A DNA stretch of 64,000 nt from the NCBI GenBank assembly GCA_050575255.1, contig JBNZDD010013718.1:6936579-7000578 (forward strand). The letters run 5' to 3'. A program made the translations under genes and the position numbers. Positions 5,882 to 63,113 of this stretch are shown piece after piece (the stretch's first letter is position 1; each line of letters begins with the position of its first letter). The notes beneath the pieces were generated by a model. That model was not told the DNA's origin and searched no databases. It saw only the letters and a program-made list of their open reading frames with translations. The stretch comes from Harriotta raleighana (taxonomy: Eukaryota).

Positions 5882-8800
5882 GTGAGTTGTTGTCCACACA
5901 CACACACACAAACACACAGACAACACACGCAAACTCCTTTCCTCTCTCCCCTCTCTCTAATTCTCTCCCTCTCTCTTTTTTAACCCCCCCCCTTTCCCTC
6001 CCTCCTTCCTTCCCTTTCTCTTCCCCCTTCTCAACCCCACATACGCGACACACACAAAAACTCGCCGACTTTTCACAGCGCTCCGCCGCTCAAGGAGAGC
6101 TTTCGTCGGGCTGCAAAGTCAGGAAAAGCCGCCTCAGAACAGGGTTAACTCGGGGCCTGTGTTTTTATTTGATGGGAGGGAAAGAGAAAATAAATGCTGC
6201 GGGGAAACAAGGGGGAGAGAGACGTTCAAAACACTAGCGCTTTCTTTGGGGTTTGATATGAAGGAGAAGGAATGGTGGGGGGGGGTGGTGGTGGGGATTT
6301 GTTTCTTGAGGGGAATTAAAACTTCCACCGTTGTGCTCGGGTTTTAACTCGCGTTTGGCATTTTTCTTGGGTTTGCAGCCATCTCTTTCGCAGCCTACAT
6401 TGCTCAGTGTGGGGAGTTGTTGCATCAGAGTTAAAGTGCAGCAATTTAGTTTTCACCTTGTGTTGTGTAGGTGTGTGTGCGGGCAAGAAAAATGCTATAT
6501 TTGCCGGTTGAAAGAAACCGTCGGAAAAATCATGGTTTGAGTTAAAAGAGTGCCATGAGGTTTTTTTTCCCCCCTCAAAAAAGTCTTGGGAATTTAACAG
6601 GCAGGAGTTTAAAATAACCCACTTATACATTTACAGTTTTGCCACGTCCCATCATCATGCAGGGTGTTGTTGCACAGAAAGACATTTGTTTTTACACGCA
6701 CAAGAGTTTATTTACTAACCGAATGGAAAAGCACTTTTGATACGCGAAGAAAGAAGAAGAAAGAAGAAGGGGAAAAAAATACAACCCCTCTTGTGGATTA
6801 GTGTAGCCTTTCAAATGACTTTTCACGTGTAAAGCATCCCAACGTGCTCAAGACTGATCAGATTGGGTTTCCTCTGCTAGGCCCTTTATTGTTTCCATTG
6901 TCTGGACTCCGGGTAGCGAGATAATATCTGAAAGAAACTTGCTCCCCAGCCCCCGCTTGAAGCTTGAAAGCAAATCCAACCAGTGCCTCGACACAATCCC
7001 AAACCTGCCCCCCCCCCCCCTTTTCTGGTGTCTCTGCGCTGCTGCTGAACGAGATTGTAACTGAATCGGGAATTGTGCGCAGCGATAAAACGTGCTTTAT
7101 TGGTTGGTGGTCGACAAAAGGGAAACTGTGATCCCTGTTCTTCATCTTTGTTTCCTTTTGAACCGAGGCAAGTCGTGATGCTGCCGGGCAGAAAGGGGCC
7201 GGGGTTTTACTCTGTGTGTATTCCGACATGGAGTTTAGCGGCTCTTTTGTCGACGCGTTACTCTTTTTTTCCCAGGGCACTTTTTCTTTTAACTTTGCTG
7301 CCGAGGATTCTCAACATCGTACATTTTGTTCCACGCGAATTCTTTGTGTGTAAGGGAAAGGGAGTGACTTTGCAGATCCGTTTTAATTGCCAGGAAACAA
7401 GCCAGCCTGGATTCGGTGTCCCCTTTATTACCATGCAAATTGGCTCCACTCGGGTCTCAGCGGGTAATAAATAATATTCAATTCTAAATGGTAAATTTCT
7501 GCAAAATCTTTCCTTTTTTTTATTATCTGGGGGGCTTTACTCCCAGAAGAAAGTGTAATCGAGTGGAAGTTCACGACTCTTATGAAATCAGTCAGATTTT
7601 ATTGTACATTATTCAGCATAAACAGTTGTTAAAAGTGATAGATTATGTTATATATGTATTTGAGAAAAAAAGTTGCTAAAGTGTAATATTAACGATAGAA
7701 CGTGTTGCTTCAGTAGTCAAAAGGTTAGTTGGTCAGGCCTTCAGTGGGGGGGTGGGGGGGGGGGGGGNTAATTTTATGTGTTTTTAAAGAAATAACTCCA
7801 GAAATTTACAGAGGTGCTCAATTTTAATTCCCTGAGGTTGGATTTGTCTATACCCCCATCCCATTACCAGTCTACAGTCATCTACCATCTGCACTCAAAC
7901 GGATTATGTGCATTCTTGGCTGGGATGTGTGGAAGTGTGTGTTTCCTCAGGAAGTGGGGGGGAAGGGAAGAGGTAGGGAATACTGACCTTGCTTCTTCAC
8001 CCAGTGTCAGGGCATTGATGGTGGCAAAAAGTCTTGTAAGACATCCTATCCATTCCTTTCCAGTTCAGGATTCACAAAAAGTCACAAGCCTTTGAAAGAG
8101 GGGTACTCATAATACAAGATCTATTAAAACTTCAACCTAAAACTGATTTGGCGCTCTATGAAATGCGCTTTCATATCGGTGGGGTAGCACTCACTGTTGC
8201 CAATTCCCTGGCAACTGAGATTTGCAGCAGGTTTCCTGGATAAAATGTTGCCTTTGTGCTTGAAATTCTACTGCAATCACGATAAAATTTGAATTTCAGA
8301 GAATTCTGACTTGTCTTCTGAATTTTTTTTAAATAGACAAAATCTTTGACTTTATCTTATAAACAGGAAATAAGACAGAGATAGCCTTATCAGACTAAAA
8401 GTATTATCTATTTTTCTTGGTTGAAAACTCATGACAGTTGCATCATGCCCTCATTGCTTTTTCAGAATAGCTTCATTTTGCAGTTTCAAAATAATGGTGT
8501 TTTAGAATAATTTTAAATGTGATGGTCTGTGTGACGTAATTATGTTAGCCGCAGGCCAGCACTACACATTGTGATCATATCCTCTCAGCAAAATGCCTCA
8601 TGATTGTTGGGCAGTAGCATTTTTGTGAATTGCTGCATAAACCTGTGCCAAGATGTATGTATTCTTAGAGACTTTTTCTCTTAAGGTTCTTATGAGTCGA
8701 GCCTACAGCATATAAGATTAACAATATGACTTCTAATGGACCACATGACCTTGTTGATGTTGAAATAGAAGATTTTGTGGCCTTACTTTGAGGACATCTA

Positions 8801-23892: not shown

Positions 23893-26800
23893 GAATTGAT
23901 TAAACAAAACTACCAGAGATTAGTTCTGCACATATAAATCGCAGAGAATAGATTGCCTTCAGGAAAGGTAAAATATGTAAGGTGATTTCCCCCACCCCAA
24001 AAGCTAAACATTGTAATGAGATACTATTAACATTTTGTCTTCTAGATCTTTCACTAGATATCCCAAGTCAGTTCAGAAACAAGAGATCCAAGAATCAGGA
24101 AAATGGACCAATATGCACTCTCCGTGGTAAGGCTGTTTTGTCCTTTGCCTTATGGTGTCCTCCCAACATGAAATACAAATGTAATTTGTTGCTCTAGCAT
24201 GTGTAAATGCTGGAGATGAGAGTCTTAAAACGGATCAATTTTCCGGCAGTAATGGGCAAGCTTACAGAAAGCAAGTGTGGTGGACAAGAGGAAGGAAGTA
24301 GTTTGAGGGTTTCTAACGAGACAAGGCACCGGCTGCTTAGTTTCATTGATGCTGAAACTTTTTAGTGTACTTGTTCGCTTTCTTTTAAGATCTGAATGGA
24401 CCACATGTACATTTTAACTAGAAAAGCTTGGTTTCAGTGCAATAAGAGGGAGAAAACTATAACTTTTCTGATTGCCAAAAGTCAATATCTTCCATCCCAC
24501 CATATATTAATTTTTGGATTCTACACTTTGAATCGGTTGCCAATGGATTCTCTTTTGTTCTATTTAACTGCAATTTCTGGAGCCTGAGTAATACCTGCTT
24601 TTATGGCTCCAGAGAAATTTTATTAAGCATTGAATGACTGGCTGAGCCTTCTGTGATTTTTGGTTTACTTAGTCAGCACAGACTTGAAAGATTAATGGGA
24701 GTTCTAGCAGTCTGATAAATGGTGATTTGTAATGCCACAATATATATGAGTAGGGGTGAGAAGATTGTGATTGAATCAGTTCTTGCCAATGTAGAGTTGT
24801 TCATTGCAGTCTGTTTTCCTGTAGATTGCCTACGCAGTTTCACAGACTTGGAAGAGTTGGATGAAACCGAGCTGTACATGTGCCATAAATGTAAAAAGCG
24901 ACAAAAGTCCACAAAAAAATTTTGGATTCAAAAGTTGCCAAAGGTTAGTTCTGTGTTTCGTTTCCTGTACTTTTCTTGAGAAAATAGTTTACCTCTAAAT
25001 TTTATATGGGTAGATTTTGTAAATGTAGATCTCAGTTCAATCACTCAGCTATTCTGAGATGTTTTGGGTGTTGGTACACCAAACTTGAGAATTAAACTTC
25101 AAAGTGCCCTTTTTATTTGAGGGTTTTGTCTGGCAGAACTGAGGTCTACATTTTATTTGAAAGGTGCAACATACAGTAAATACAAGTAGCAATTTATATT
25201 TTTGTTGATGAATTTCACATAAAAGTATCTTCTCAAAGCACTTTACAGATTGAAATTTGAAATGAAGTGCATGATGTGTAGACTACCTTGGTGTTAACTT
25301 GTGCTAGCACTTTCTTAAAAACAACAATGAAATGAGTAGCTATTTGATTTGATTTAGGGATAATTTTTACTTGGGTCTTTCTAATGAAAAAAAAATCCCA
25401 ATGCTCAAAGTTGTAGATCTTCTCCAGTGAATAAATCCAGTGTTGTGTATCCGTGTAACCGATTGCAACTGAACCCACATATTGAAAATGTTCCAGAATA
25501 TCCAGGTGTTAAACGGGTCAGTGTAATCTACTGTATTGTCCCCTAATTCTTGTGATCTTCTTTCTATCCCATTAATTTTAGGTATTGTGTTTGCATCTGA
25601 AAAGATTTCACTGGACAGCATATTTACGAAACAAGATTGATACGTATGTAGAATTTCCTCTGCGAGGCCTAGACATGAAGTGCTTCTTGTTGGAGGTATT
25701 TGTCCAGTTTTATTTTAGTTTTTATCAGCTGCTTCAGATTTACATCAGGGTATAAATGACAACTATTGAACTATAGAATGTTTTATCAACTATGTTAAAA
25801 GTAGCGTCTGCTTAGCAGGCATATGTGTATCAAATGTGTTAACATTGCTGCATTTGCAATGTCATGTTAGCCTGTGATAATTGGTTCAATGCAGTTTTTA
25901 TCCTGTATTCGCAGTTGAATGCAATCAATAAATTTGCCCTTATTAGTGAGGTACACTTATTTAGTGAGATTAAAGTGAAAACTGATCAAAAGATGCCCCA
26001 AATGTTGAGTATTTCTCATTATTGAGGTCCAGATGAGCTGAGGTTCTATTGTATAACAGAACTTGTGTACAAATTGTATGAAATATTACAACAACAAATC
26101 ACATTTATAGAGCGCCTTTCACGTCAGTTGGAAAGACAAGATGTGGTGTGCTTAATATCCCTTTTAAGCGCTCTGAGATGCGATCTGGCGTGGAGGGCGC
26201 TATATAAATTTAAGTTGTTGTTTTAACGAGCTCCTGTGGCTTAGTGGTTAGAGCACTTGCCTTACAAGCATGAGACCTGTGTTCGAATCCAGGCAGATCA
26301 GGGCGAAACCTTGGGCAAGTTTCCCTACTCCACACGCCTAATAATAATCCCTCCAAAAAAAACATGATTATAATAATGGGTCATTTCAATCTATGACTGT
26401 TTGTGGGACACTGCTGTGCGCAATTGGCTGTCGCGTTCCGCCCACAAATATACAGTCAATTCACTTTACAGTATATTTTGTGAAGCGCTTTGGGACGTCG
26501 ATAAAATGTGAAAAGTGCTATATCAAATGCAAGTATTATTATACATTAATACTTCTAATGGATTCTTATATTTGTCCTTTTCTAGCCTGAAAACAGTGGT
26601 CCTGATAGTTGTCTTTATGACCTTGCAGCTGTAGTGGTGCATCATGGATCAGGGTAAGTACGTGTGAGGTTGAGAAACCATCCAATAATTAACCTATATC
26701 TTGCTGGAGCTTGCATAAGTTTTGACTTGTTAATTTTCAAAAGTCTGTTGTAATTTAATTCTTGAGCACATTTTGAACCAAACCCTTTTTGAGTAACATA

Positions 26801-31611: not shown

Positions 31612-31916
31612 AATAATAAAAATAATAATAATCCTGGCATTTGTTATAGTGCTTTTCATGCCTTATAGATGTCTCAGAGATTCACAGAATATACTGTAAA
31701 ATTAATTGATTGGACACATGTGGATGAAATGTGGCAACCAATTGCGCACAGCAGTGTCCCACAAACAGCCGTGGATTGAAATGACTAAATTTTTTTGGAG
31801 GGATTTTTTTTAGGCATGTAGAGTAAAGAATCTTGCCCACTGTTTTGCCTTGCCTGGAAATGAACCCAGGTCTCTTGCTTGTAAGGCAAATGCTCTAACC
31901 ACTGGGCTACACGGCT
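31612..31916 (-). mobile_element. tRNA-derived SINE, full length
   Basis: Reverse complement of the 26228 family, including the head GAACCCAGGTCTCTTGCTTGTAAGGCAAATGCTCTAACCACTGGGCTAC. Confidence 0.88.
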
Positions 31917-32008
31917 CCATACATGCAGTGGCGGAGTCGAGCAATTATATAAAAAACAGCAAGTTGTTATGGCAACACCACTTCAACCTCTTCAACTGGC
32001 TATATGTA

Positions 32009-32097
32009 GAGTTCTGTAGCTTAGTGATTAGAGCACTCGCCTTACAAGCGAGAGATCTGAGTTCATTTCCAGGCAGGGTGAAGCATTGGGCAAGTTT
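32009..32097 (+). mobile_element. SINE tRNA-like head only
   Basis: GAGTTCTGTAGCTTAGTGATTAGAGCACTCGCCTTACAAGCGAGAGATCTGAGTTCATTTCCAGGCAGGGTGAAGCATTGGGCAAGTTT. Confidence 0.85.
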
Positions 32098-32845: not shown

Positions 32846-33180
32846 ATGCAGCTAACAGAATTAAATCATGAGTGTTTGCTTCATATATTTTCATTTCTGG
32901 ACAAAGAGACCAGAAAGAGTACATCTCTGACCTGCCACAAACTTTGTGACGTATTCATGGACCCAGCCCTGTGGTCTTTGCTGAATTTCTCTTCGCCCTC
33001 AGAACTGAGGGAAGATAATTTTCTGCTGAGTCCCATGTTACGGTCCCTGTCTATCTGTTGGTACTCGAGCCGAGTGAAAATCTGCAACATTGAAGACTGG
33101 ATGAAAAGTAACTTTCAGAGAGACATCTGCAGCAAGCATGAAAATCTCATTAATAACTTCTTGAATCAAATAAGTAACAG
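32846..33180 (+). CDS. FBXL22: FBXL22 coding exon 1
   Basis: ATG at 32846; donor AACAG|GTAGGT; acceptor ccctttctag ending at 32810 implies an upstream non-coding exon. Confidence 0.92.
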
Positions 33181-35000
33181 GTAGGTTGAAGGTTTTGATT
33201 CTATTTGGACAGGTCATATTTCAAGCACATTTGATTTATGTGAAACAAGTAATGTAAAATTGTTTATGGGACATCGCTATATGCAATTGCAATATTTAAT
33301 TCATTAATAATTGCCCACTGAACTTTACAAAATAATAATAATAAACAAAATATTCTGTAAAGAGCTTTGAGATGTCTCAATGAAGAGACAAGGCACTATA
33401 TCAACTGCAAGGATTATTATTAGTAGTAAAATATATCTTATTCGCATTTCTTTTCATTTTGTGGAATAAAGAGAAGAAATATTACAGGCACCACAGGCAC
33501 TAATAATTCTATCATTATTTTCCTTTTGTTTTGATTTCAGCAGTAAAGTAGTAAAGGCCTGTATTCAATTTCTAAGGAATAGAAAGCTATTAATATAGTG
33601 GCAAAAGTTCTCCTTTTACTGTTCAAAGAAAACAGATTCACATTCAGGATTGCTTGACAGCCCGTCTTATGATTGCTCTAAATCTGTTCTTGGTCACAAC
33701 AATCAAGTCGACTAACTCAGCCTGGTATCTTGCTGAACTGAACAGGAATAAATACTGAAGTAGATTCATTGCAGATTGCAGTACAACGTACCGACAATTG
33801 GTGATGGTGTCCTGTGTGATACCATTGTAGGCAATCTATGAACCCACTGAACGATACATAACTGAGGTCAGTTGGGATCATTGGTAGTGTTAAAAAAAGG
33901 TATTGCACTTGTACATGTCAGATGTTCCATTAGAACACAAGAATACTGAGAAATAAGATGAGACTTGTCTCACACTGCAGGCCGCCAAGACCCTCATACA
34001 TGCATTCATAAAATTCAGGTTTGACTAGGAAACCTCCCTGCTTGTCAGCCTCCCCAACTCTTCCTTCCATAGGCTGCAGATCATCCAGAACTCTGCAGCC
34101 CGTGTCCTTTCCCGCAACCTATCACCCCCATCCTCACTCGACTCCACTGGCTTCCCATCACACAGTGGATACAGTTCAAGATCCTGGTTCTCACATTCAA
34201 AACCCTCCATGGCCTTGCTCCCCCCTACCTCCGTGACCTCCTAACCCCCTATCAACCTGGCCGCTCCCTCCGTTCGGCGGGCTCTGGCCTGCTTCACATA
34301 CCCTGCCTCTCCTGCCCCACTGATTGTCCAGCGCCTTGAGACGACCTACTGACGTGATAACTGCAATACAAATGTAATTTTGTTGTGATTTGTTGTTGTT
34401 GCTGTTGTTGTAAATTCTCAATGTGAATACTCAGACAGAGTGAAGTGTTTTGGTTTCTCGTGCACTGGTGTTGTTTCCAGTGACTCTGCGAGATGAGGTG
34501 TCACAGCACTCACATGCATAATTGATAATCCCAGATAAACGTTAAAGCAATGTCCAATCATTATTGTCCCTGAGGGTTTCCAGTGGTCAGATCTGCTCCT
34601 TTGCTGGGTTAATATTCTATCTGTAAATGATATTCTCGTTAGTGTGCATTTGTTTTCCAGGTGTCCAAATTTGGTGTCATTGACCCTCTCTGGATGCGGA
34701 CATGTCACAGACTACTACATTATACAAATATTGCACAAATGCACCAAACTGAAAGTGTTAAAATTAGAAAACTGTGTAAGAATGACTGACAAGGCCTTGG
34801 AAGCAGTCACGATCCACGGAATAAATTTACGAACACTGCACGTGGATTTTTGTCGAAATATCACGCAAGGAGGCCTTCTAATGATCAGAGAGAAATGTCG
34901 TTCCCTGTTTGTTAGCGCAGATAGAAGCGCTGGTATGATCCCTGATAATAAACCAGAGGAAACAGACAGTTTGTGGAGAGGAATGAAGAAACGACTGTAA
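32846..35000 (+). CDS. FBXL22: F-box and leucine-rich repeat protein 22, 2 coding exons, 224 aa
   Basis: Exons 32846-33180 and 34661-35000 join in frame (675 nt). [20 protein letters not shown] (F-box)...[18 protein letters not shown]...[18 protein letters not shown]...LENCVRMTD...[10 protein letters not shown] matches recalled FBXL22; position downstream of USP3 is syntenic. Confidence 0.95.
33955..34411 (+). mobile_element. 5'-truncated L2 (LINE2) element: degenerate ORF2 C-terminus plus 3' tail
   Basis: Broken frames read [57 protein letters not shown], the typical L2 ORF2 end. Tail TGTCCAGCGCCTTGAGACG..GACGTGATA..ATACAAATGTAA(TTG)n. Confidence 0.88.
34661..35000 (+). CDS. FBXL22: FBXL22 coding exon 2 (LRRs, stop)
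   Basis: ttttccag|G TGT CCA AAT... to TAA ending at 35000. Confidence 0.93.
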
Positions 35001-40719: not shown

Positions 40720-41020
40720 AGATTCCTGTAGCTCAGTGGTTAGAGCACTCGCCTTACGATCGAGAGACCTGGGTTCAATTTCAGGCAGGGTGAAACCTTG
40801 GGTAAATTTCCTTACTCCACATGCCTAATAATAATCCCTCACAAAAAAAAATTGGTCATTTCAATCCACGACTGTTTGTGGGACACAGCTGTGTGTGATT
40901 GGCTGCCATGTTTTGCTCACATGTACACTTTGCTTTACAGTATATTCTGTGAAGCACTTTGAGATGTCTAGAAAACGTGAAAAGAAATGCTGTATCAAAT
41001 GCAAGGATTATTATTATTAT
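40720..41020 (+). mobile_element. tRNA-derived SINE, full length
   Basis: TAGCTCAGTGG A box, GGTTCAATTT B-box-like, CTTACGA loop, same core and (ATT)n tail as 26228. Confidence 0.9.
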
Positions 41021-42540
41021 CACCCAACCCAAACGTTTTTTTCCCCCGTCTCTCTTGACAATTTTCTCTGCAGCCTCCTGAAGCTGTTGCCTTCTTTTTA
41101 TTCTATGGGCTATGGTTCCATGGGTATCTTCCAATGNATCACCCAACCCAAACGTTTTTTTCCCCCATCTCTCTTGACAATTTTCTCTGCAGCCTCCTGA
41201 AGCTTTTGCCTTCTTTTTATTCTATGGGCTATGGTTCCATGGGTATCTTCCAATGTCTTGCAGTGTTGCTGTTAATTCACACGTAGCTTTGGCTATTTGA
41301 CCATGAGAGTCAACACAAGTCGAGTCTGATTCTCACTTCACCAAGGGAAAGCAGGATCTTATTTCCACCTCTTAACCCACTATTGCATATATAAATCAGG
41401 ATTGAAAGCTGCAGGTTTACAGTCTGTAAAGGCTGGCTGTTCCTTCCTAGTGAAGGTCGTGCCTTCACTAGGTCATTGGCGGGGCCACACCTGAATTTAT
41501 TTAACGCAGGCAGCAATTCCGTCCATTTTTTCTGTGCCACAAAAGGAGTTAGTGGCTCTTGTTGCTGGCCCTCACGTATAAACTTGTGATAGACATGAAA
41601 AGGAGGAAATGAAATTTCATTTACAAACACATAACAGATTTAAAACACGTTTCACTGACAAATCTAATAAGGTCTGTTTATTTATAAATGGGCATAAACC
41701 CACCTTGATAAAAAGGCATGTTTTATTGTTGAATGGTGATGTTTCTGGGACTGTCCTCCCAACATGAAAGGCACTCTAGAAATGTAATTTTGTTGTTGTA
41801 TAAGCACAAGCTTTAGCACGAGTCTTCTCTGTAAAACTGTTCTGGAAGGTCATTAGATCTTGTGTTGTTAAGATGTAGTTATCTGTATTAGCTCTAATCT
41901 GTATATATTAATGTTAGACAGCCATCTGCTCTTCCCCCATTGCCTGAATCAGCTGAAAAGATATGCTCCTGCTTTCTTTGCTACTCAGTGTTGCTCATGT
42001 TAACAAGCTTGTGCGAACAACCCTGAATTTAGGATTAGTAGTCATGAAGCATTCAGTCTATCTAAATAATGACTGCAAATTTCAGTTCAATTTAAATGCT
42101 ATGGCTGTTTATGGTGACATTGTTAACGCTGTTTATGATGACATTGTTTTTTATATAAACGTAGTTGTCTGGGGCAACAGCTTTCTGATGTCTCCTCATT
42201 GTTCGTTTTGTTCAGAGGTAGATTGAAAGCTTTCGTAACCAAAACATGTAGCTGGCTGCCATGGTGGGGGTGGTAGGGGGAGGTTAGGGTACTGTACAGT
42301 GCTCTGAGGGAGAGAGTATGATGTTTTTGGGGTGCTTGGGGGAAGATGGGAGTGGAGAGATGCTGACTTGGTGAGGAGGGGGTGAAAGGATTAGCAGCAC
42401 TGTATGGTGGCTTATACAGCAGGACAGCTGCTACTGCTGATATAACCTCCTCAGTTTAATTGTTGTTCCAGTACTTGATCCCTATAAGGACATGGAGGAA
42501 TTGAAAGTTTTTTTTCATATTTAGCAGTAAATACCCATTT

Positions 42541-43005
42541 TAATAATCCTTGCATTTGATACAGCGCTTGTCACGTCTTCTAGACTCTCAAAGCACTTCA
42601 TAGAATATACTGTAAAGTGAATTGACTGTATATGTGGGCGAAAATACATCTGAAAATACTGTACTTGTCATCACATGTCTTAACTGCAGATCACATTTTT
42701 TTAATCTCCAACTAAACATCTCTCAGGAGTGCGTTGTAGTGTCAGCTGGATTTAAGTCTTACCTTGTTAAATTTTGGTCAAAGGCGATTCATTGTATCAT
42801 AAAGAAGATGATTCAAGATATTCCCCAAAATACATGGATCAGAATAAACGTTATGTTCATTTCGCGTATATATGTGTGAATAGTAATTATGTGTGCATTT
42901 GATATGGCGCCTTTACATGTCATTCAGATGTCTCAGAGCACCTCGCAGAATGTATTGTAATGTGAATTGACTGTATCTTGTGGGCGAGCGTGGCTGGCAA
43001 ATTCA
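42541..43005 (-). mobile_element. Two SINE 3' fragments (42541-42645 and 42885-43005)
   Basis: TGCATTTGATAC/ATGGCGC...CAGAAT..TGTAA..GTGAATTGACTGTAT..GTGGGCG in both. Confidence 0.75.
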
Positions 43006-43186
43006 TACAATAATTCATTTCTAATCAATTTAGACGCCATTGCCTCTATTTTATTGCATGTGTTGTTCTCCCAGCGAAATACGTACATCCGTAGCATTTA
43101 GATCAATTAAAACAAGAGCGGGTTAGACACTGTCAGTCAACGCTAAAACTTTCTTCAGGGATTAAGTAAGAATGGCAATCCAAAGG

Positions 43187-43500
43187 CACGTTTTCCGAAA
43201 TAGCTTAATAAGAAAAATACTGAATTGTCTTACCAAATCACGTGTCAAAGCACCTGCTGAGCATTACGTGCGGGTAATGTAATTACGCTGTAATGACCAC
43301 AAGTGTTTACGCCTGGGTTGCTTTGGCAACTTTATTTATAGACAAGAAAAACAACTGCCTTTCAGGCGTTACCCTGCCACGTGGCTAGCCACACACTGCT
43401 GCTCTCTGTCACGTTGCCCTCCACACCGAGCCATTGATCAGACACAGGAAGGAAGTGAGGCAGTCAGTCAGTCTAATCCGCTAACCGCGACTGACTGCAC
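43187..43500 (+). promoter_or_regulatory. Distal E-box cluster of the CIART-like gene
   Basis: CACGTT 43187, CACGTG 43239, TACGTG 43265, X-box GTTGCTTTGGCAAC 43317, CACGTG 43378, CACGTT 43410; CpG-enriched. Confidence 0.7.
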
Positions 43501-43922
43501 TGCATCTCTCTCTCTCTCTCTCTCTGTGTGTATGTTGGATCTTAAGACGCTCATTTGCCAATGTAATTGTAGGATCAGCTGGGGGCAGGGATGGGAAGGA
43601 AACCTTGGGAGCTCGGTTTAACCGAATGTTCCAAGTCAAAGCAGGGCCTTTGAGGTGTTAAAATTCAGAAACGTTAACAGCACAAACAACCAAAACAAAC
43701 CCTGTGTCCAGGTAACAGTTGCTTCCATTAAATATATATTATATACTGTATACATATTTTTTGCCAGATGTAAGGCCCAGCCTTTTGGGGGGCTATTTTT
43801 ATAGTTTTTAAACGAAAAAACGCAAATCATTTCTTACTCCATCCCTGTACTAATTAATTGTACTTACAATCTGACAGATTGCCTATCTTTTAGTCTGAAT
43901 CCCATGTATCCCCCCCTCACTA

Positions 43923-43947
43923 CACACACACACACACACACACACAC
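43923..43947. repeat. (AC)n microsatellite
   Basis: Pure ACAC run between the two promoter modules. Confidence 0.9.
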
Positions 43948-44039
43948 TGATCCAGAGATTAACACCAGCTGTAATGAGAACGTTGGGTTTCAGCTGTTTC
44001 GACGCCGCAACATTTGTTACTTTCTCCAGGGGTTACGGC

Positions 44040-44220
44040 AGCTGACATTTGCATAGCCATTGTCCTCCCGACCAATCCAGAGCGAGGACTCCGGGATACC
44101 ACCGTGGCCATTGGCTGCCTATCACAGTGTGGGCGGGGCCGGTCGGTGCGGAGTGCCCGCCCCCACACGTTGCCCCGGGGGCGGCCACACGAGTTGCGAG
44201 CTCATGTGAGTGAGTGAGTC
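44040..44220 (+). promoter_or_regulatory. Proximal promoter of the CIART-like gene
   Basis: Small CpG island with ATTTGCAT 44047, CCAAT 44072, ATTGG 44110, GGGCGGGG 44131, CACGTT 44166, CACGAG 44188. Confidence 0.72.
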
Positions 44221-44494
44221 CAGAGTGTGTGTGTGTGTGTCCAGAGCCTGAGCAAGTGATACATACAGTCAGATAGATCCCACTGGGGAGCAGTATATTG
44301 CAGTCAGTGCGAGAGATCAGGAGCAGAGTTAACTTGGTTGGCAAGCGAGTTCCCTGTGTTATTCGGGGGGCAAATAGCCAGTTAGTCCAGTCTACTGTGT
44401 TCACCAAGAAAACAAAATAACTCCTGCATTTAGTTTGCAGTCTGTCTGCCATAGAATTAACTGCAATCCCCCAAACCTGCCTGGACAACATATA
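44220..44494 (+). other. Probable non-coding first exon of the CIART-like gene
   Basis: Follows the promoter; donors ATA|GTAAGT (44495) and CTG|GTAAGA (44523). The next exon starts at the acceptor at 45206, 9 nt before the ATG. The start coordinate is approximate. Confidence 0.5.
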
Positions 44495-44554
44495 GTAAGT
44501 ACAGTGTCACTTTGATGTTCTGGTAAGACTGACTGTGGATTCTTTCTTTCTCCC

Positions 44555-44630
44555 TGTGTGTGTGGGTGTGAGTGTGTGTGTGGGTGTGAGTGTGTGTGTG
44601 GGTGTGAGTGAGTGTGTGGGTGTGAGTGTG
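44555..44630. repeat. 18-bp tandem repeat (TGTGTGTGTGGGTGTGAG) x ~4
   Basis: Directly visible; produces the HSHPHT repeats in the spurious minus-strand ORF. Confidence 0.9.
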
Positions 44631-45215
44631 TTTTCAGATCAGCGATGGTCGATCTATACAAATTGCACGTTTGACAAGTCTCTATGTTTAAAATTAATGC
44701 ATTGCAAAAAAAAGCAAAGCGCTTTTTTTTAACCCTCATTTATTCCCCATCCCTCAGAGGATTGAAGTGTGGTTATGGAGGCAGAAAGAGACAATATTTG
44801 GGATTAGGATTGGGATAATCTTTCTGACAATGTACGCGTTCATCATCACTGTATCGTTTCTTTCACAGGCGAAGATGTTTTTAAAACTGTTTATTTTATG
44901 AGTCATATACAGGGATTCCCCTTAGTTTTTTTAAAATAGATCATTCACGAATTAAACACTCATTACATTTAGATTTTTTTTAAAAAGGATTAAAATGGAC
45001 AATATTAAAATTACAGGTGATTCGTGTGCTCAGCAGTTAAATTAAAATTAGTGAGCAAGTATTATAATAATAATATAATAATAATAATCCTTACATTTAT
45101 ATAGCGCTTTCCACATCTTATCGACGTCTCAAAGCGCTTCACAGAAAAGTGATTTATTACATGAACCTTGATAACTCGGTGTCTAATGCATTGTGTTGTA
45201 TTTCAGAAAACAGCT

Positions 45216-45803
45216 ATGCATTTGGTGGTAGAACTTCCAAGCAGCAGCATATCACTCGGTGAGTCTGATTATTCAACAGACTGGTTTACAAGTGACGATG
45301 AAGGGAGTGAAATATTTTACTCTGATAGTGAGAGTGAAATAAAATGTGATGAGCTGTCCTCAGTAATGCATGGCTCCTTTGCATACTCTTCCAGAGATTT
45401 TGAATCTCAAGAAAATCTTAAAACAACCATCAAGGCAGCGGAGAGAAAAAACATCCATGCCCTGCAGTTGCTTCCATCAGCATCGAATGCCTCTGGTGTC
45501 AGTGAATCCACTGTCCCCGTGGATAAAGATCTTCTCGAATGCGGTTATTCTTCCAGAAGTGACCTTTTAATCAAAACACTGAGTAATCAGGCATCCTTTC
45601 GTAGCAGTATCGTAGCATCTGTAATGAGTTCCAACAAAATGTGCGAAGATGCAACCATAAGTCTTCCAGGACTCCATGCCATTGACAATTCTTTTGCTAA
45701 AACAATCGTGCCAATTAAAAGGAAAAGAGAAAAGCAAGACTTAAAAATGGCGACAGAAGACGTCAGCACAATGTCTGAAGGGGACATCATCTTTGCCCAA
45801 AAG
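45216..45803 (+). CDS. CIART-like coding exon 1 (acidic Ser-rich N-terminus, PIKRKREK, start of the conserved domain)
   Basis: Acceptor tttcag ending at 45206, ATG at 45216, 196 open codons, donor AAG|GTAAAA. Confidence 0.88.
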
Positions 45804-48419
45804 GTAAAAATCACTAGAATTCATTATTTTAAGGGTTACTAAAAGCAAAATCAGATATTGAAGTTTAGGCTGAACATTGCTTACATTTTGTTGGCTGCTA
45901 CTGAAAAAGATGTTATTGGCGTTTACAGTTGGTTTAGAAGGCTAACTTGTATAACACGATTCGATAAACCGAGTCTGGCAATTCAAGTGGACATTGAAGA
46001 TTCCATGGCATTATTTTAAAAGAGAAGAGAGTTAATCCTGGTGTCCTGGAGAACAATTCCCCAAATAAAATTGGTCACTCACTGGATGTTTATGGCTCAT
46101 TGGTATGTCCACATTCGCAGCTACGTTTGCCCACAAATGTATAGTCACTACACTTCACAAGATATCCTGTGAAGTGCTTTGATCCATCAAATCCAAGGGT
46201 AATCCAATTATTATTTTCCACAACAAACATTTTTCTTTATACAACACCTTTCACCATAGGGGATATTTTAACAGTGTTTACAGTTTACTGGGCAAGCCCA
46301 CTGTATTGTACAAGATGGATGGGGAGGGGATTGGATTGCCTTAGCCTCCAAGCAAGTGTTAAAACCAATATAAATTGTTTGCTGTGGACTTAGCTTCTAA
46401 TAAGAATGGTGTTTGTCTGTAAAATCACTTCTGGTAATTATTGTTAGCTTTGGAGCCTGCAGCTGTTTGACCAAATGACATATTCTTCATTCTGGGTGAG
46501 ATTCCTATTTTAGCACCTTGAAATGAAAGACCAGTTACTGCAACACAAATCTGCCTCCCCTTCCCCCGTTTGCATTTGTTCTATTTTACATCCAGAAAAA
46601 ACATTTAGGCCTTTAGCCTTACCAAATTGTTTTTCACAATATCAATTTATATGAGTGTGGTAACTAAAAAGGTTGAATAGTTCATATTCTTAACATTTCT
46701 TTCTTTCTTTTGTGTTTAGTGTGGGGAACTTCAGGGCTTCATTCCTCCTCTGAACTTGCTGCTGAATGGCCTCAAGTCTGGAAAGTACAGAAAAGGTACA
46801 TGAACTTCAAAACCTATTTAAACTCGCATTGAATCCTAATTGTGCAATAGTTAAGGGCCAACATTTCGCAATCGTAAAATCTGGTTATTTATGTATCTCG
46901 GTAGGTTTGACCAGTTTCCAGGAAAGTGTTGCCATGGACAGAATCCAGAGAATTATGGGAGTTCTGCAGAATCGAAAACTAGGGTAACTATTTGAGCATG
47001 ATTTGCTCTGCTTGGCAAGCTTTTTGTTCTGTGTTTAAAATGAGCTAAAAGTGTTAACATGTTTGGTGTACATGCTCATCATTATTTCCATGGATGCACT
47101 TTTCAAATCTTAGTACTCTGCTGCCTCACCAGAGCCCTGTCATGTGAAGATTGTTAATCCCACTTCCAACATTTGCCAGGAAATAATTGGAATCACAACA
47201 CTTTACAATTAGTCAATCTGATGAAGCAACATAAAATGGATCATCAATGCTTGGCATCCAGTTGTGGTTGAACCACTTAACTTTATACTCAAGACTTGTG
47301 TAGTTTTATGACTTGGAAGATAAATAACCATAGCATTTGATTTTTAAGGTAGATTTCTAACCTCACTTGCCTGGTTTCCAAACGTGTCTCCCAACACTGG
47401 TGGAGTGTAGATAGGCATCCCAGTAAAGTAAAACTCATACAAGTCTGATTTGTATGAATCGGATAATCACCTAAATCTTAAATCTGCCCTACCCATTCAA
47501 GATTCTACTCTATGGGGGTTTGACATAACGCATACTTTGCACAAGTTCATAGTAAAGATATGGTCTCAACTGATATGACTCAGTGCTTTGGGACATCCTT
47601 GCCATGTGAAAGCCCTACACAAATGTAGTGTTGTTGTTATGATGTGTGGTTTACTCTGGTACCTGTATTGCCTATGATGAGTGTTGAATCCATCAAAGAA
47701 TGTAATATTATACGATACTCCCAATGTTATTCAACCAATACAATTTCTTACTGTAATATTAACACTAAAAACTTGCACTTAAAAAACTTTCTGTTGCTAT
47801 ATCGTGTTAATGCAAAATTCAAATGATTTTATTTTGCAGTGAACAATACATAGCGATTTTGCTGCAGGTGGAGCGAATGTTGAAGGGCTGGTTTCCCAAT
47901 GTTGCTCCTGTTCCAGGGTGTAAGGATTCTCTCAATGAGATAATTCATCATAAACGATTCAAGGTAAGAAATAACATGTGTATAGCTGCGTATTGCTCAG
48001 CAGAATTGTGCAATTTCTGTAATGGAGTTAATGACAATACTACAACTGCCTAACCAATATCCTGTGTAACTGTTATATGTTTTTGCATTCATTGACCAAA
48101 TTATAAAATCTAGAATTCCATTTACTGTATCGATCTCATTCACCAACTTGAGCATCAGAGTCGCATTTGCACCTTCAAGTCTATTGGCATCACATCTATT
48201 TTTAAAGACGTTTAGAACATTTTGGTCAGAGTCTCCGCTAATGCTTATGAATTTTGGGATTGTGGCAGACTATTTGGGGCCTGGCTACATTTCCATTTTA
48301 TGACCTTTCATATTTTCCCAATTGTATTTCCCCTTCAGATACTGCACATGTGGTATTGCATACAATGCTTCACTGAACATTACCATTTTTGTTTGCAGAA
48401 AAATGACCAAAGAAGATAA
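45216..48419 (+). CDS. Circadian-associated transcriptional repressor (CIART/CHRONO) family protein, probable paralogue, about 295-315 aa
   Basis: Exons 45216-45803, 46720-46795, 46905-46983 and 47840-47963 splice in frame to SEGDIIFAQK|CGELQGFIPPLNLLLNGLKSGKYRK|GLTSFQESVAMDRIQRIMGVLQNRKLG|EQYIAILLQVERMLKGWFP. Recalled human CIART reads TEGDLLFAQKCKELQGFIPPLTDLLNGLKMGRFERGLSSFQQSVAMDRIQRIVGVLQKPQMGERYLGTLLQVEGMLKTWFP. The last exon is uncertain. Confidence 0.9.
45985..46182 (+). mobile_element. Old Deu-domain SINE relic in a CIART-like intron
   Basis: GTGGACATTGAAGATTCCATGGCATTATTTT..GGTGTCCTGG..TTGGTCACTC..GCAGCTACGTTTGCCCAC..AGTCACTACACTTCAC..GTGAAGTGCTTTG matches the recalled Deu core plus tail. 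Confidence 0.65.
46720..46795 (+). CDS. CIART-like coding exon 2
   Basis: Long pyrimidine tract, tttag|CGELQGFIPPLNLLLNGLKSGKYRK|gtacat. Confidence 0.9.
46905..46983 (+). CDS. CIART-like coding exon 3
   Basis: ggtag|GLTSFQESVAMDRIQRIMGVLQNRKL|gtaact. Confidence 0.9.
47840..47963 (+). CDS. CIART-like coding exon 4
   Basis: ttttgcag|EQYIAILLQVERMLKGWFPNVAPVPGCKDSLNEIIHHKRFK|gtaaga. Confidence 0.9.
48339..48419 (+). CDS. CIART-like putative last coding exon (alternative acceptor start at 48399)
   Basis: Two good acceptors (cccttcag ending at 48338, gtttgcag ending at 48398) share a frame and both stop at TAA 48417-48419; no recognisable homology. Confidence 0.45.
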   Translation: MLHMWYCIQCFTEHYHFCLQKNDQRR

Positions 48420-49988
48420 AAAGAACTGAATGCACAACGTTTGAAGATAAAGGATGGATCACAAGTGGAACTCTGCAAAACTCCAGATAAGGGATTCTAT
48501 ACAGTACCACAAACCAACTCCAAAGGAAAAAGTTATTTCAAAGGAGCTTTATGAAAATCAGCCTTGTGGAAAAAAAACTTGTTGATCATCCTGTAAGTAC
48601 TTGTACAGATGCTGATCAGGTGAAACCAGCTAATCGAAGTAGAATTTGCTTTTATACAAAAGCAACATTTGCTGATGGCCACTCTTACAGATCTCCACCG
48701 GGATGCGTGAGCACGACCAGCCCAAAGGGGTCACCATTAGTACCACAGAATGCTAATTTAACACTATCACGATTGACCTAGATTATAACGGGTACTGGTT
48801 TGGTTTACAGATTAAAGTACATCTCTTGTTCATTATTTTGTGCTCAGAAATGCAGTAAGTGGTGAATAGAGCATAGCAAGCTTTAAAAGCATAATGTATA
48901 ACATTAAAACACGTTTCTGCAGAAATAATTTGACTGTTAATGCACATTTTAAGACATTTAAACAGCTGAATTCTTGATAAATGAAATTGTTTTGCAATGC
49001 CAATTTGAAAACATCTAGATTTTTTACAGCAGTATGCAGATGTACACGTTTACTGCTTGCTGATGTTTTACTGACAGTTGTTATAATGTTTATACATGTA
49101 AACTGAATATATTCATGATCACAGATTAAGTGGCAGTTGCTATGTTTTTGCCTATATTTATGCAATGTGCTTAACATGTTTATGAATGTATGCTCTTATC
49201 GGGGTATGGGTATATGGAGGACAAATTTGCTTTAATGCTGGTTGACTGGTGGAAATTTGGCAGTGATGTACATTAATAAATGATCATATTGCACAGGGTT
49301 AATTATATATATTTGAGTATTTGTTTTTATGGTTAATTTTTTTTAAATGGCCATAAATTCTTATTTTACATCACTATGAATTAGGTCAAAGGGACTTGGC
49401 TCCTCGTTGCATAAATTCACCTTAAAATGCTTTGCAGAATGGAGATATAATCTTAAATTTGTCTTTCCTGTAATGTGTACAACTCTATTCTTGGGCTACA
49501 TGTTGCAGTTCTTTTGGTCCATGACCAAAGAAAATTATGAATCTTACAAAATTAAGTATTTTAAGGGTGTTCTAAGAATCAGATTCCCACCGTCAGGCAC
49601 AGCAAGGAAGAAGCTTTGTGCATCCCTGATAATAACTGTTTCAAACCAGAACTTGGCCACTTAGAAGTTAGTTAAATATTAAATGACTCGCTATTTTTCA
49701 GGTAACAAAAACAGTGGGCCAGGAAGGACAAATATTGTAACCTGGCCAAATAGATGTGCTTTTAATTCACAACAATTCAAACTAACCTGACAAATATAAT
49801 GCATCTATCCATGCATACAGCTATCCAAGAAAATGATATCAAATAGAAATATAGTAATAACTTAAATGTAGTAAAGCTTTTGAATTTGTTTATATACATA
49901 ATCCTTCCCACAACTATTTTTGATCAGTCAAATATCACAGACAGCTTGAAGTACCAGTTGATAAATAAACATGGTTTTAAATTAGCAT

Positions 49989-50433: not shown

Positions 50434-63113
<12,680 letters not shown>

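Follow-up and report, generated by a model that had tools for sequence, protein, structure and literature searches.

Which member of the CIART/CHRONO family of clock repressors lies beside HERC1 in the chimaera Harriotta raleighana, and can its product still do what CHRONO does? The locus is contained in 64,000 nucleotides (nt) of contig JBNZDD010013718.1 (GenBank assembly GCA_050575255.1, forward-strand positions 6,936,579 to 7,000,578); we call this whole stretch the window and count positions from its first letter. A first-pass annotation had proposed a second CIART gene here, with a complete helical domain, probably a sister copy lost in mammals. With moderate confidence, we read the gene as the chimaera orthologue of a second ('b') CIART/CHRONO lineage, probably driven by E-boxes and encoding a repressor that would act through BMAL1 only and would probably be weakened by the loss of its tail. 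The b lineage is widespread in fishes and already labelled in databases; this copy of it is truncated.

A five-exon gene of the CIART family

The gene lies on the plus strand. Its five coding exons are separated by introns that are all GT-AG (phases 0, 1, 2, 0) and are spliced into a CIART-family product of 295 amino acids (aa). The parts of the gene are as follows.

43187..43415, no strand assigned: E-box cluster, CACGTG at 43239 and 43378, CACGTT (E'-box) at 43187 and 43410, a D-box-like element between
44072..44208, plus strand: proximal promoter-like region of putative function, two CCAAT boxes, a GC box and an E'-box at 44166
44220..44494, plus strand: possible non-coding first exon, ending at a GTAAGT donor at 44495; its start is the coordinate given by the first-pass annotation
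45216..45803, plus strand: coding exon 1 (acceptor 45206/7, ATG 45216), with the acidic b-lineage N-terminal motif, a disordered linker, a basic KRKR cluster (candidate nuclear localization signal, NLS) and the start of helix 1
46720..46795, plus strand: coding exon 2, helix 1 of the Ciart core
46905..46983, plus strand: coding exon 3, helix 2, with the b-lineage Glu in FQES
47840..47963, plus strand: coding exon 4, helix 3 through WFP, then 22 more residues
48399..48419, plus strand: coding exon 5, six codons, then a premature TAA at 48417-48419
48410..48781, plus strand: decayed former coding tail, presumably 3' untranslated region now, the remnant spread over three frames

Exons 1-4 (867 nt) form a single open frame without stops and contain the CIART motifs that the first-pass annotation had quoted from four in-frame exons. 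The Pfam family Ciart (PF15673) is matched by exons 2, 3 and 4 at consecutive profile positions, 32-55, 59-80 and 84-106 (E 2e-5, 7e-8 and 4e-5); exon 3 passes the 27-bit cut-off by itself (32.6 bits), exons 2 and 4 by themselves do not. Judged from its sequence, the gene is a member of this family, and that part of the annotation holds. Its claim of an intact gene holds for exons 1-4, which are open and spliced, and fails at the fifth exon, which stops after six codons, with what corresponds to the tail of the Callorhinchus milii protein scattered over three frames at 48410-48778. Position 48419, taken for the natural end, belongs to the premature TAA.

Among the matches listed, the closest relative of the spliced protein is C. 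milii LOC103188008 (XP_007905990.1, P0011), with 238 of 294 residues identical (81%); by homology alone this match would most likely mark the window as holocephalan. This direct orthologue, labelled 'uncharacterized' in the database, has the same start, motifs and core; it differs in running to 428 aa, with a tail that is open though eroded. No second CIART copy lies within the window. A homologue search with exon 1 alone gave 0 of 200 candidates (lengths 123-394, a range that leaves out the 428-aa C. milii orthologue), the ESM Atlas yielded no usable match, and sequence searches of the PDB found no relative.

Two CIART lineages

Is the gene then the orthologue of human CIART? Homologues came from a search with exon 3 (best 120 of 211 matches) and one with the C. 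milii core (best 120 of 517, mostly tetrapods). Types were counted on the 199 named matches from both, 40 rows without a name being dropped, and the counts that follow hold among the matches so listed. At the FQ.S site 96 named matches, fish-type and including the coelacanth, have Glu, versus Gln or Arg in the 103 that we call a-type. The Glu-type, or b-type, matches mostly carry an N-terminal DW motif and a C-terminal PCL..LL motif besides. Members of the b type occur in the chimaera, coelacanth, sturgeon, paddlefish, gar, bowfin and teleosts, some teleost species having two copies, and gar has one protein of each type (P0081, P0216). All five records labelled 'ciartb' by NCBI are b-type. The 92 named tetrapod matches are all a-type, with no b type among them.

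The window protein has Glu at the FQ.S site and the N-terminal DW motif, both features of the b lineage. Independently of the core, its N-terminus gives 19.2 bits with the b profile versus 6.2 with the a profile (best of 300 shuffles, 14.6). In trees built on hand-picked rows it groups with the b proteins with support of 94/85 (core, 40 rows by 87 columns), 99/97 (wider, 24 rows by 222 columns) and 98/95 (the 20 named rows only); a quick tree of 287 columns gives 97 for the same grouping in the Shimodaira-Hasegawa-like approximate likelihood ratio test. The gene thus appears not to be the orthologue of human CIART: Gln or Arg at the FQ.S site, an a-type N-terminus and a grouping with tetrapod CIART are all absent from it. 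With the b-type proteins of bony fishes (coelacanth LOC102347843, gar, bowfin, sturgeon, paddlefish and the teleost 'ciartb' or 'CIART-like' proteins) it shares the clade, an N-terminal SD.S.DW motif and FQES; their tail, however, is about 150 aa long and carries WLHTSPIC, QD..VSSS and PCL..LL, none of which is in the window product. Mammalian CHRONO/CIART (C1orf51, Gm129; PF15673) has a three-helix core about 71% identical to that of C. milii, and upstream E-boxes have been described for the mouse gene (PMC3988004). It differs in lineage, locus, N-terminus and NLS, and it has a PER2-binding C-terminal region that the window product lacks.

When did the two lineages part? Forced monophyly of the ray-finned proteins is rejected by the approximately unbiased (AU) test (p-AU 0.0008, 20 named rows), and therefore the a/b split is older than the divergence of bony vertebrates. 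The trees show the duplication to precede both that divergence and the teleost duplication. Most likely it took place before the jawed vertebrates diversified, in an early whole-genome duplication, which would be the simplest reading of the timing of the split. The sister copy of the first-pass annotation is thereby largely borne out, as is its expectation of an automatic label, since b-type proteins are already called 'ciartb' or 'CIART-like' in databases; the domain tree that it proposed sets the gene apart from mammalian CIART. Its 'lost in mammals' is right as to absence and too late as to timing, for the b gene has apparently been lost in tetrapods generally (among the matches listed). 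Nor is the component special to this genome, with the lineage present from coelacanth to teleosts.

Several points weigh against placing the chimaera gene in the b lineage. The AU test does not reject a grouping of chimaera with a proteins (p=0.187 for the core, p=0.061 for the wider alignment), and the chimaera branch is long. The root rests on proteins without taxon names (the deep rows P0312 and P0358) and falls, unsupported, among the a rows. The Glu/Gln split is not entirely clean either, one deep row without a taxon name also having Gln.

The 240 matches listed include no CIART, whether a or b, from a named shark or ray, and the b gene may have been lost in both groups. A profile search of 50% representatives (best 150 of 292) contains a well-separated a-type clade (P0283, P0285, P0305) outside all named groups, and these may be the a genes of cartilaginous fishes. 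They, too, seem to be without the tail motif described below. A second, faster-evolving, teleost-like a-type group (P0300, P0308, P0309, P0314, P0320) suggests up to four teleost CIART genes, two a and two b. Database labels are inconsistent (P0077, P0092, P0081, P0216): a b-type medaka protein is called 'a', and the gar b protein plain CIART.

In the literature, fish ciarta, ciartb and si:ch211-132b12.7 appear in expression lists alongside clock genes (PMC5397488, PMC9748118, bioRxiv 2020.07.10.181842), and in the testis of zebrafish the expression of ciartb is rhythmic (PMC11884735). As to which of the zebrafish genes is b-type, we go only by the NCBI labels of other teleosts. The accessible parts of PMC8877790, PMC5191836 and PMC9944912 contain nothing on CIART paralogy, and the accessible supplements of two ohnologue papers (PMC13450315, PMC4504502) gave no match for the terms sought. 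No account of the paralogy or of a truncated chimaera copy was found in the literature searched, which is weak evidence, most subscription journals lying outside it.

Helical core, lost tail and possible repression

Can the product still act as a repressor? The core is well kept. It retains 38 of the 41 columns conserved at a level of at least 90% in a 100-row alignment, and its identity to C. milii is 91% (74/81), compared with 90% for the N-terminal motif and 73% for the linker. In a model of the C. milii protein, used as a stand-in, helices 188-216, 225-243 and 249-265 have a predicted local distance difference test score (pLDDT) above 90 and the rest is low (disordered arms); this three-helix region, 188-265, corresponds to the bundle reported for human residues 112-196. 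Fold searches returned generic three-helix matches only (best Z 6.4; no Foldseek E <0.001), and because of this we claim no fold homology.

The window protein ends 28 residues past WFP, at about human residue 221 if WFP is used as the anchor in the 385-aa orangutan protein, whose numbering agrees with the published position of the human NLS (PMC11599456). The bundle is therefore complete in it and the PER2-binding part almost entirely missing, so that the product should be without the PER2/CK1 arm. Human CHRONO 101-245 binds the transactivation domain of BMAL1 with an affinity of about 370 nM, in competition with CRY1 and CBP, and it represses, although less than the full-length protein; residues 216-384 are needed for PER2 binding, bind the CK1-binding domain of PER2 and shorten the half-life of PER2 (bioRxiv 2022.10.04.510902). 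In another study, constructs containing 108-212 lowered BMAL1-CBP binding (the supplementary legend says 108-285; PMC3988006).

Other observations speak against a working repressor of this length. Human fragments 111-196, 1-196 and 111-262 give no repression, and 111-196 and 111-262 also fail to co-precipitate BMAL1, while fragment 111-264 both co-precipitates with it and gives repression (PMC7177903); the window product is shorter than 111-264 and than the 101-245 fragment. Two core sites conserved at 98% are changed in the window lineage (R218K, P245R), and the human NLS (59-71, PMC11599456) has no counterpart in the window protein. Published truncations thus conflict on whether the length of the window product suffices for BMAL1 binding and repression.

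One tail motif, residues 257-267 of the orangutan protein (P0122), is common to both lineages and to tetrapods, and it is the only one. It straddles the 262/264 activity boundary (PMC7177903) and lies inside the PER2-binding region; no mention of a shared motif at this boundary was found in the literature searched. That BMAL1 binding requires the motif, as PMC7177903 would suggest, we do not maintain, because 101-245 binds and represses without it (bioRxiv 2022.10.04.510902). The loose form of this family pattern, WxH-T/S-PIC, is present in 173 of the 199 named matches listed. It is absent from the window product, its remnant being out of frame, and the truncation also removes the b-lineage PCL..LL motif.

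The C. milii orthologue has 133 residues beyond the end of the window protein, and its last 135 or so are destroyed here. Exon 5 matches C. milii for 3-4 codons, after which about 16 codons are gone (net about 46 nt, out of frame) before the stop at 48417-48419. When read across four frameshifts, near 48408, 48470, 48528 and 48562, the remnant agrees with C. milii at 89 of 121 aligned residues (74%); the first of the four is the deletion, the other three are +1 shifts. No alternative acceptor and no intron retention in the window restores the whole tail. The C. milii tail itself does no better than shuffles on either tail profile (1.3 bits on the b-tail profile, shuffle maximum 5.6). A stretch around its W324 was taken up as a clear copy of the motif and given up at these shuffle-level scores; we regard it as a remnant suggested by the alignment only. 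In our reading the tail had already eroded in chimaeras and is cut off in this species.

Upstream, the region 42720-44220 holds five E or E' boxes against a dinucleotide-shuffle mean of 1.07 (P=0.0045, for a region picked after viewing), and two of the eight CACGTG in the window are in the cluster at 43187..43415, which is likely to be a CLOCK:BMAL1 enhancer. Between these E-boxes lies a D-box-like palindromic stretch (43265-43295). D-boxes mediate light induction in fish clock genes.

If our reading is correct, CLOCK:BMAL1 would drive the gene through the upstream E-boxes and the basic cluster would take the protein into the nucleus. There the three-helix core, to go by its conservation, would compete with CBP/p300 and CRY for binding to the C-terminal transactivation domain of BMAL1, in the manner of human CHRONO. 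Without a PER2/CK1 arm it would be a BMAL1-only, and probably a weaker, repressor. That the extra negative-limb clock component of the first-pass annotation is intact is doubtful, because the tail is destroyed.

The same ancestry could also lead to decay, and this is the alternative that we take most seriously, while thinking it unlikely: the truncated product would no longer repress, and the gene would be at an early stage of pseudogenization, with selection on it relaxed, perhaps in connection with life in dim, deep water. The four frameshifts and the loss of a family-wide motif fit such a course, as do R218K and P245R, a C. milii tail already at shuffle level, and an activity boundary that falls within the lost motif. 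Decay sits less well with 867 open nt and canonical splice sites, with a core and an N-terminal motif so much better kept than the linker, and with the retained E-box cluster. The premature stop lies in the last exon, moreover, and nonsense-mediated decay is not expected for such a position.

Could the truncation be an error of the assembly, with a true protein close in length to that of C. milii (about 410-430 aa)? In three of the four frameshifts a short run has gained a single base, as is typical of long-read errors, and the frame-corrected tail is stop-free over 121 codons and as conserved as the N-terminal linker. These are real points against the truncation. We nevertheless think an artefact improbable and the truncation very probably real, because the deletion of about 46 nt suffices by itself to truncate the protein; the neighbouring sequence in the window did not yield the missing peptide. 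Against the four frameshifts in about 380 nt of tail there are none in 4695 other coding nt (867 + 3153 + 675), and the chance of all four falling in the tail is about 3e-5 if errors are uniform, with control exons drawn from open-frame lists, which favours the zero outcome. Least probable of all, and by our estimate very unlikely, is that this is the sole chimaera CIART, a relocated mammalian-type orthologue or a lineage older than the a/b split: the unrejected grouping with a, the core identity to mammals and the listed matches (which contain neither another C. milii protein nor one from a named shark or ray) agree with it, and the starred support in two careful trees (99/97, 98/95), FQES and the DW motif, the possible cartilaginous a-type clade and a core-search listing of the best 120 of 517 speak against it.

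Wider implications and the neighbourhood

A broader and tentative suggestion, one that we would expect to be wrong in some part, is that the earliest jawed vertebrates possessed two CHRONO genes. The b gene would be an unstudied negative-limb component with a PCL..LL motif of its own, kept in fishes and the coelacanth and lost toward tetrapods. The form in the window would be a natural separation of function, the BMAL1 core kept and the PER2/CK1 arm shed, possibly as a deep-water simplification of the clock (living chimaeras are mostly deep-sea; PMC11521621). WxH-T/S-PIC would then be the core of a PER2-binding or stabilizing element.

Research on CHRONO has been almost wholly mammalian, and one founding paper calls Chrono mammal-only (PMC3988004). 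If the a/b split is as old as the trees place it, fish studies using ciarta, ciartb and 'CIART-like' mix lineages that parted before bony vertebrates diversified. Human CHRONO gains a pointer: the one motif outside the helical core that is common to both lineages and to tetrapods, lying in the PER2-binding region and across an activity boundary. The truncated chimaera form lends itself directly to testing whether the core suffices for useful repression. We consider the deep split, the conserved tail motif at the human boundary and the natural tail-less allele the most useful new leads. The surprise is limited, because it is common for ohnologues to have been retained by cartilaginous and early-branching bony fishes and lost in tetrapods.

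The neighbours are those that the first-pass annotation had named.

32846..35000, plus strand: upstream neighbour, an intact two-exon gene of the F-box/leucine-rich repeat (LRR) type, 224 aa open, which we take to be FBXL22
50434..63113, minus strand: downstream neighbour, the 3' part of HERC1, 19 exons, 3153 nt in one open frame, with a HECT match

The best PDB match of the downstream gene is human HERC1 (4o2w). Further upstream of the F-box/LRR gene lies a USP-family gene, presumably USP3. In human, the order at 15q22 is APH1B-CA12-USP3-FBXL22-HERC1, where no CIART gene is known, and CIART lies at 1q21 beside APH1A and CA14; the APH1A/CA14 and APH1B/CA12 regions would be the candidate paralogons. 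That mammals have no such gene at this locus agrees with a cattle interval table which, in the part accessible, lists DAPK2, HERC1, FBXL22 and USP3 only, with no CIART-like gene (PMC10804543). Two mammalian gene models, P0143 and P0183, fuse Ciart to PF15465 or PF01165, a hint at the different neighbours of mammalian CIART; we take these families to be C1orf54-like and ribosomal S21.

Elsewhere in the window, an E-box and an E'-box stand 17 bases apart at 6824-6846, near the start of the USP-family gene. A short local duplication with N bases at about 40950-41250 may mark an assembly join (the whole window has three N). Four weak tRNA matches (36-46 bits), at 26234-26296, 31845-31916, 32010-32081 and 40722-40793, are probably tRNA-derived short interspersed elements, and the pair at 31845-32081 is inverted relative to each other.

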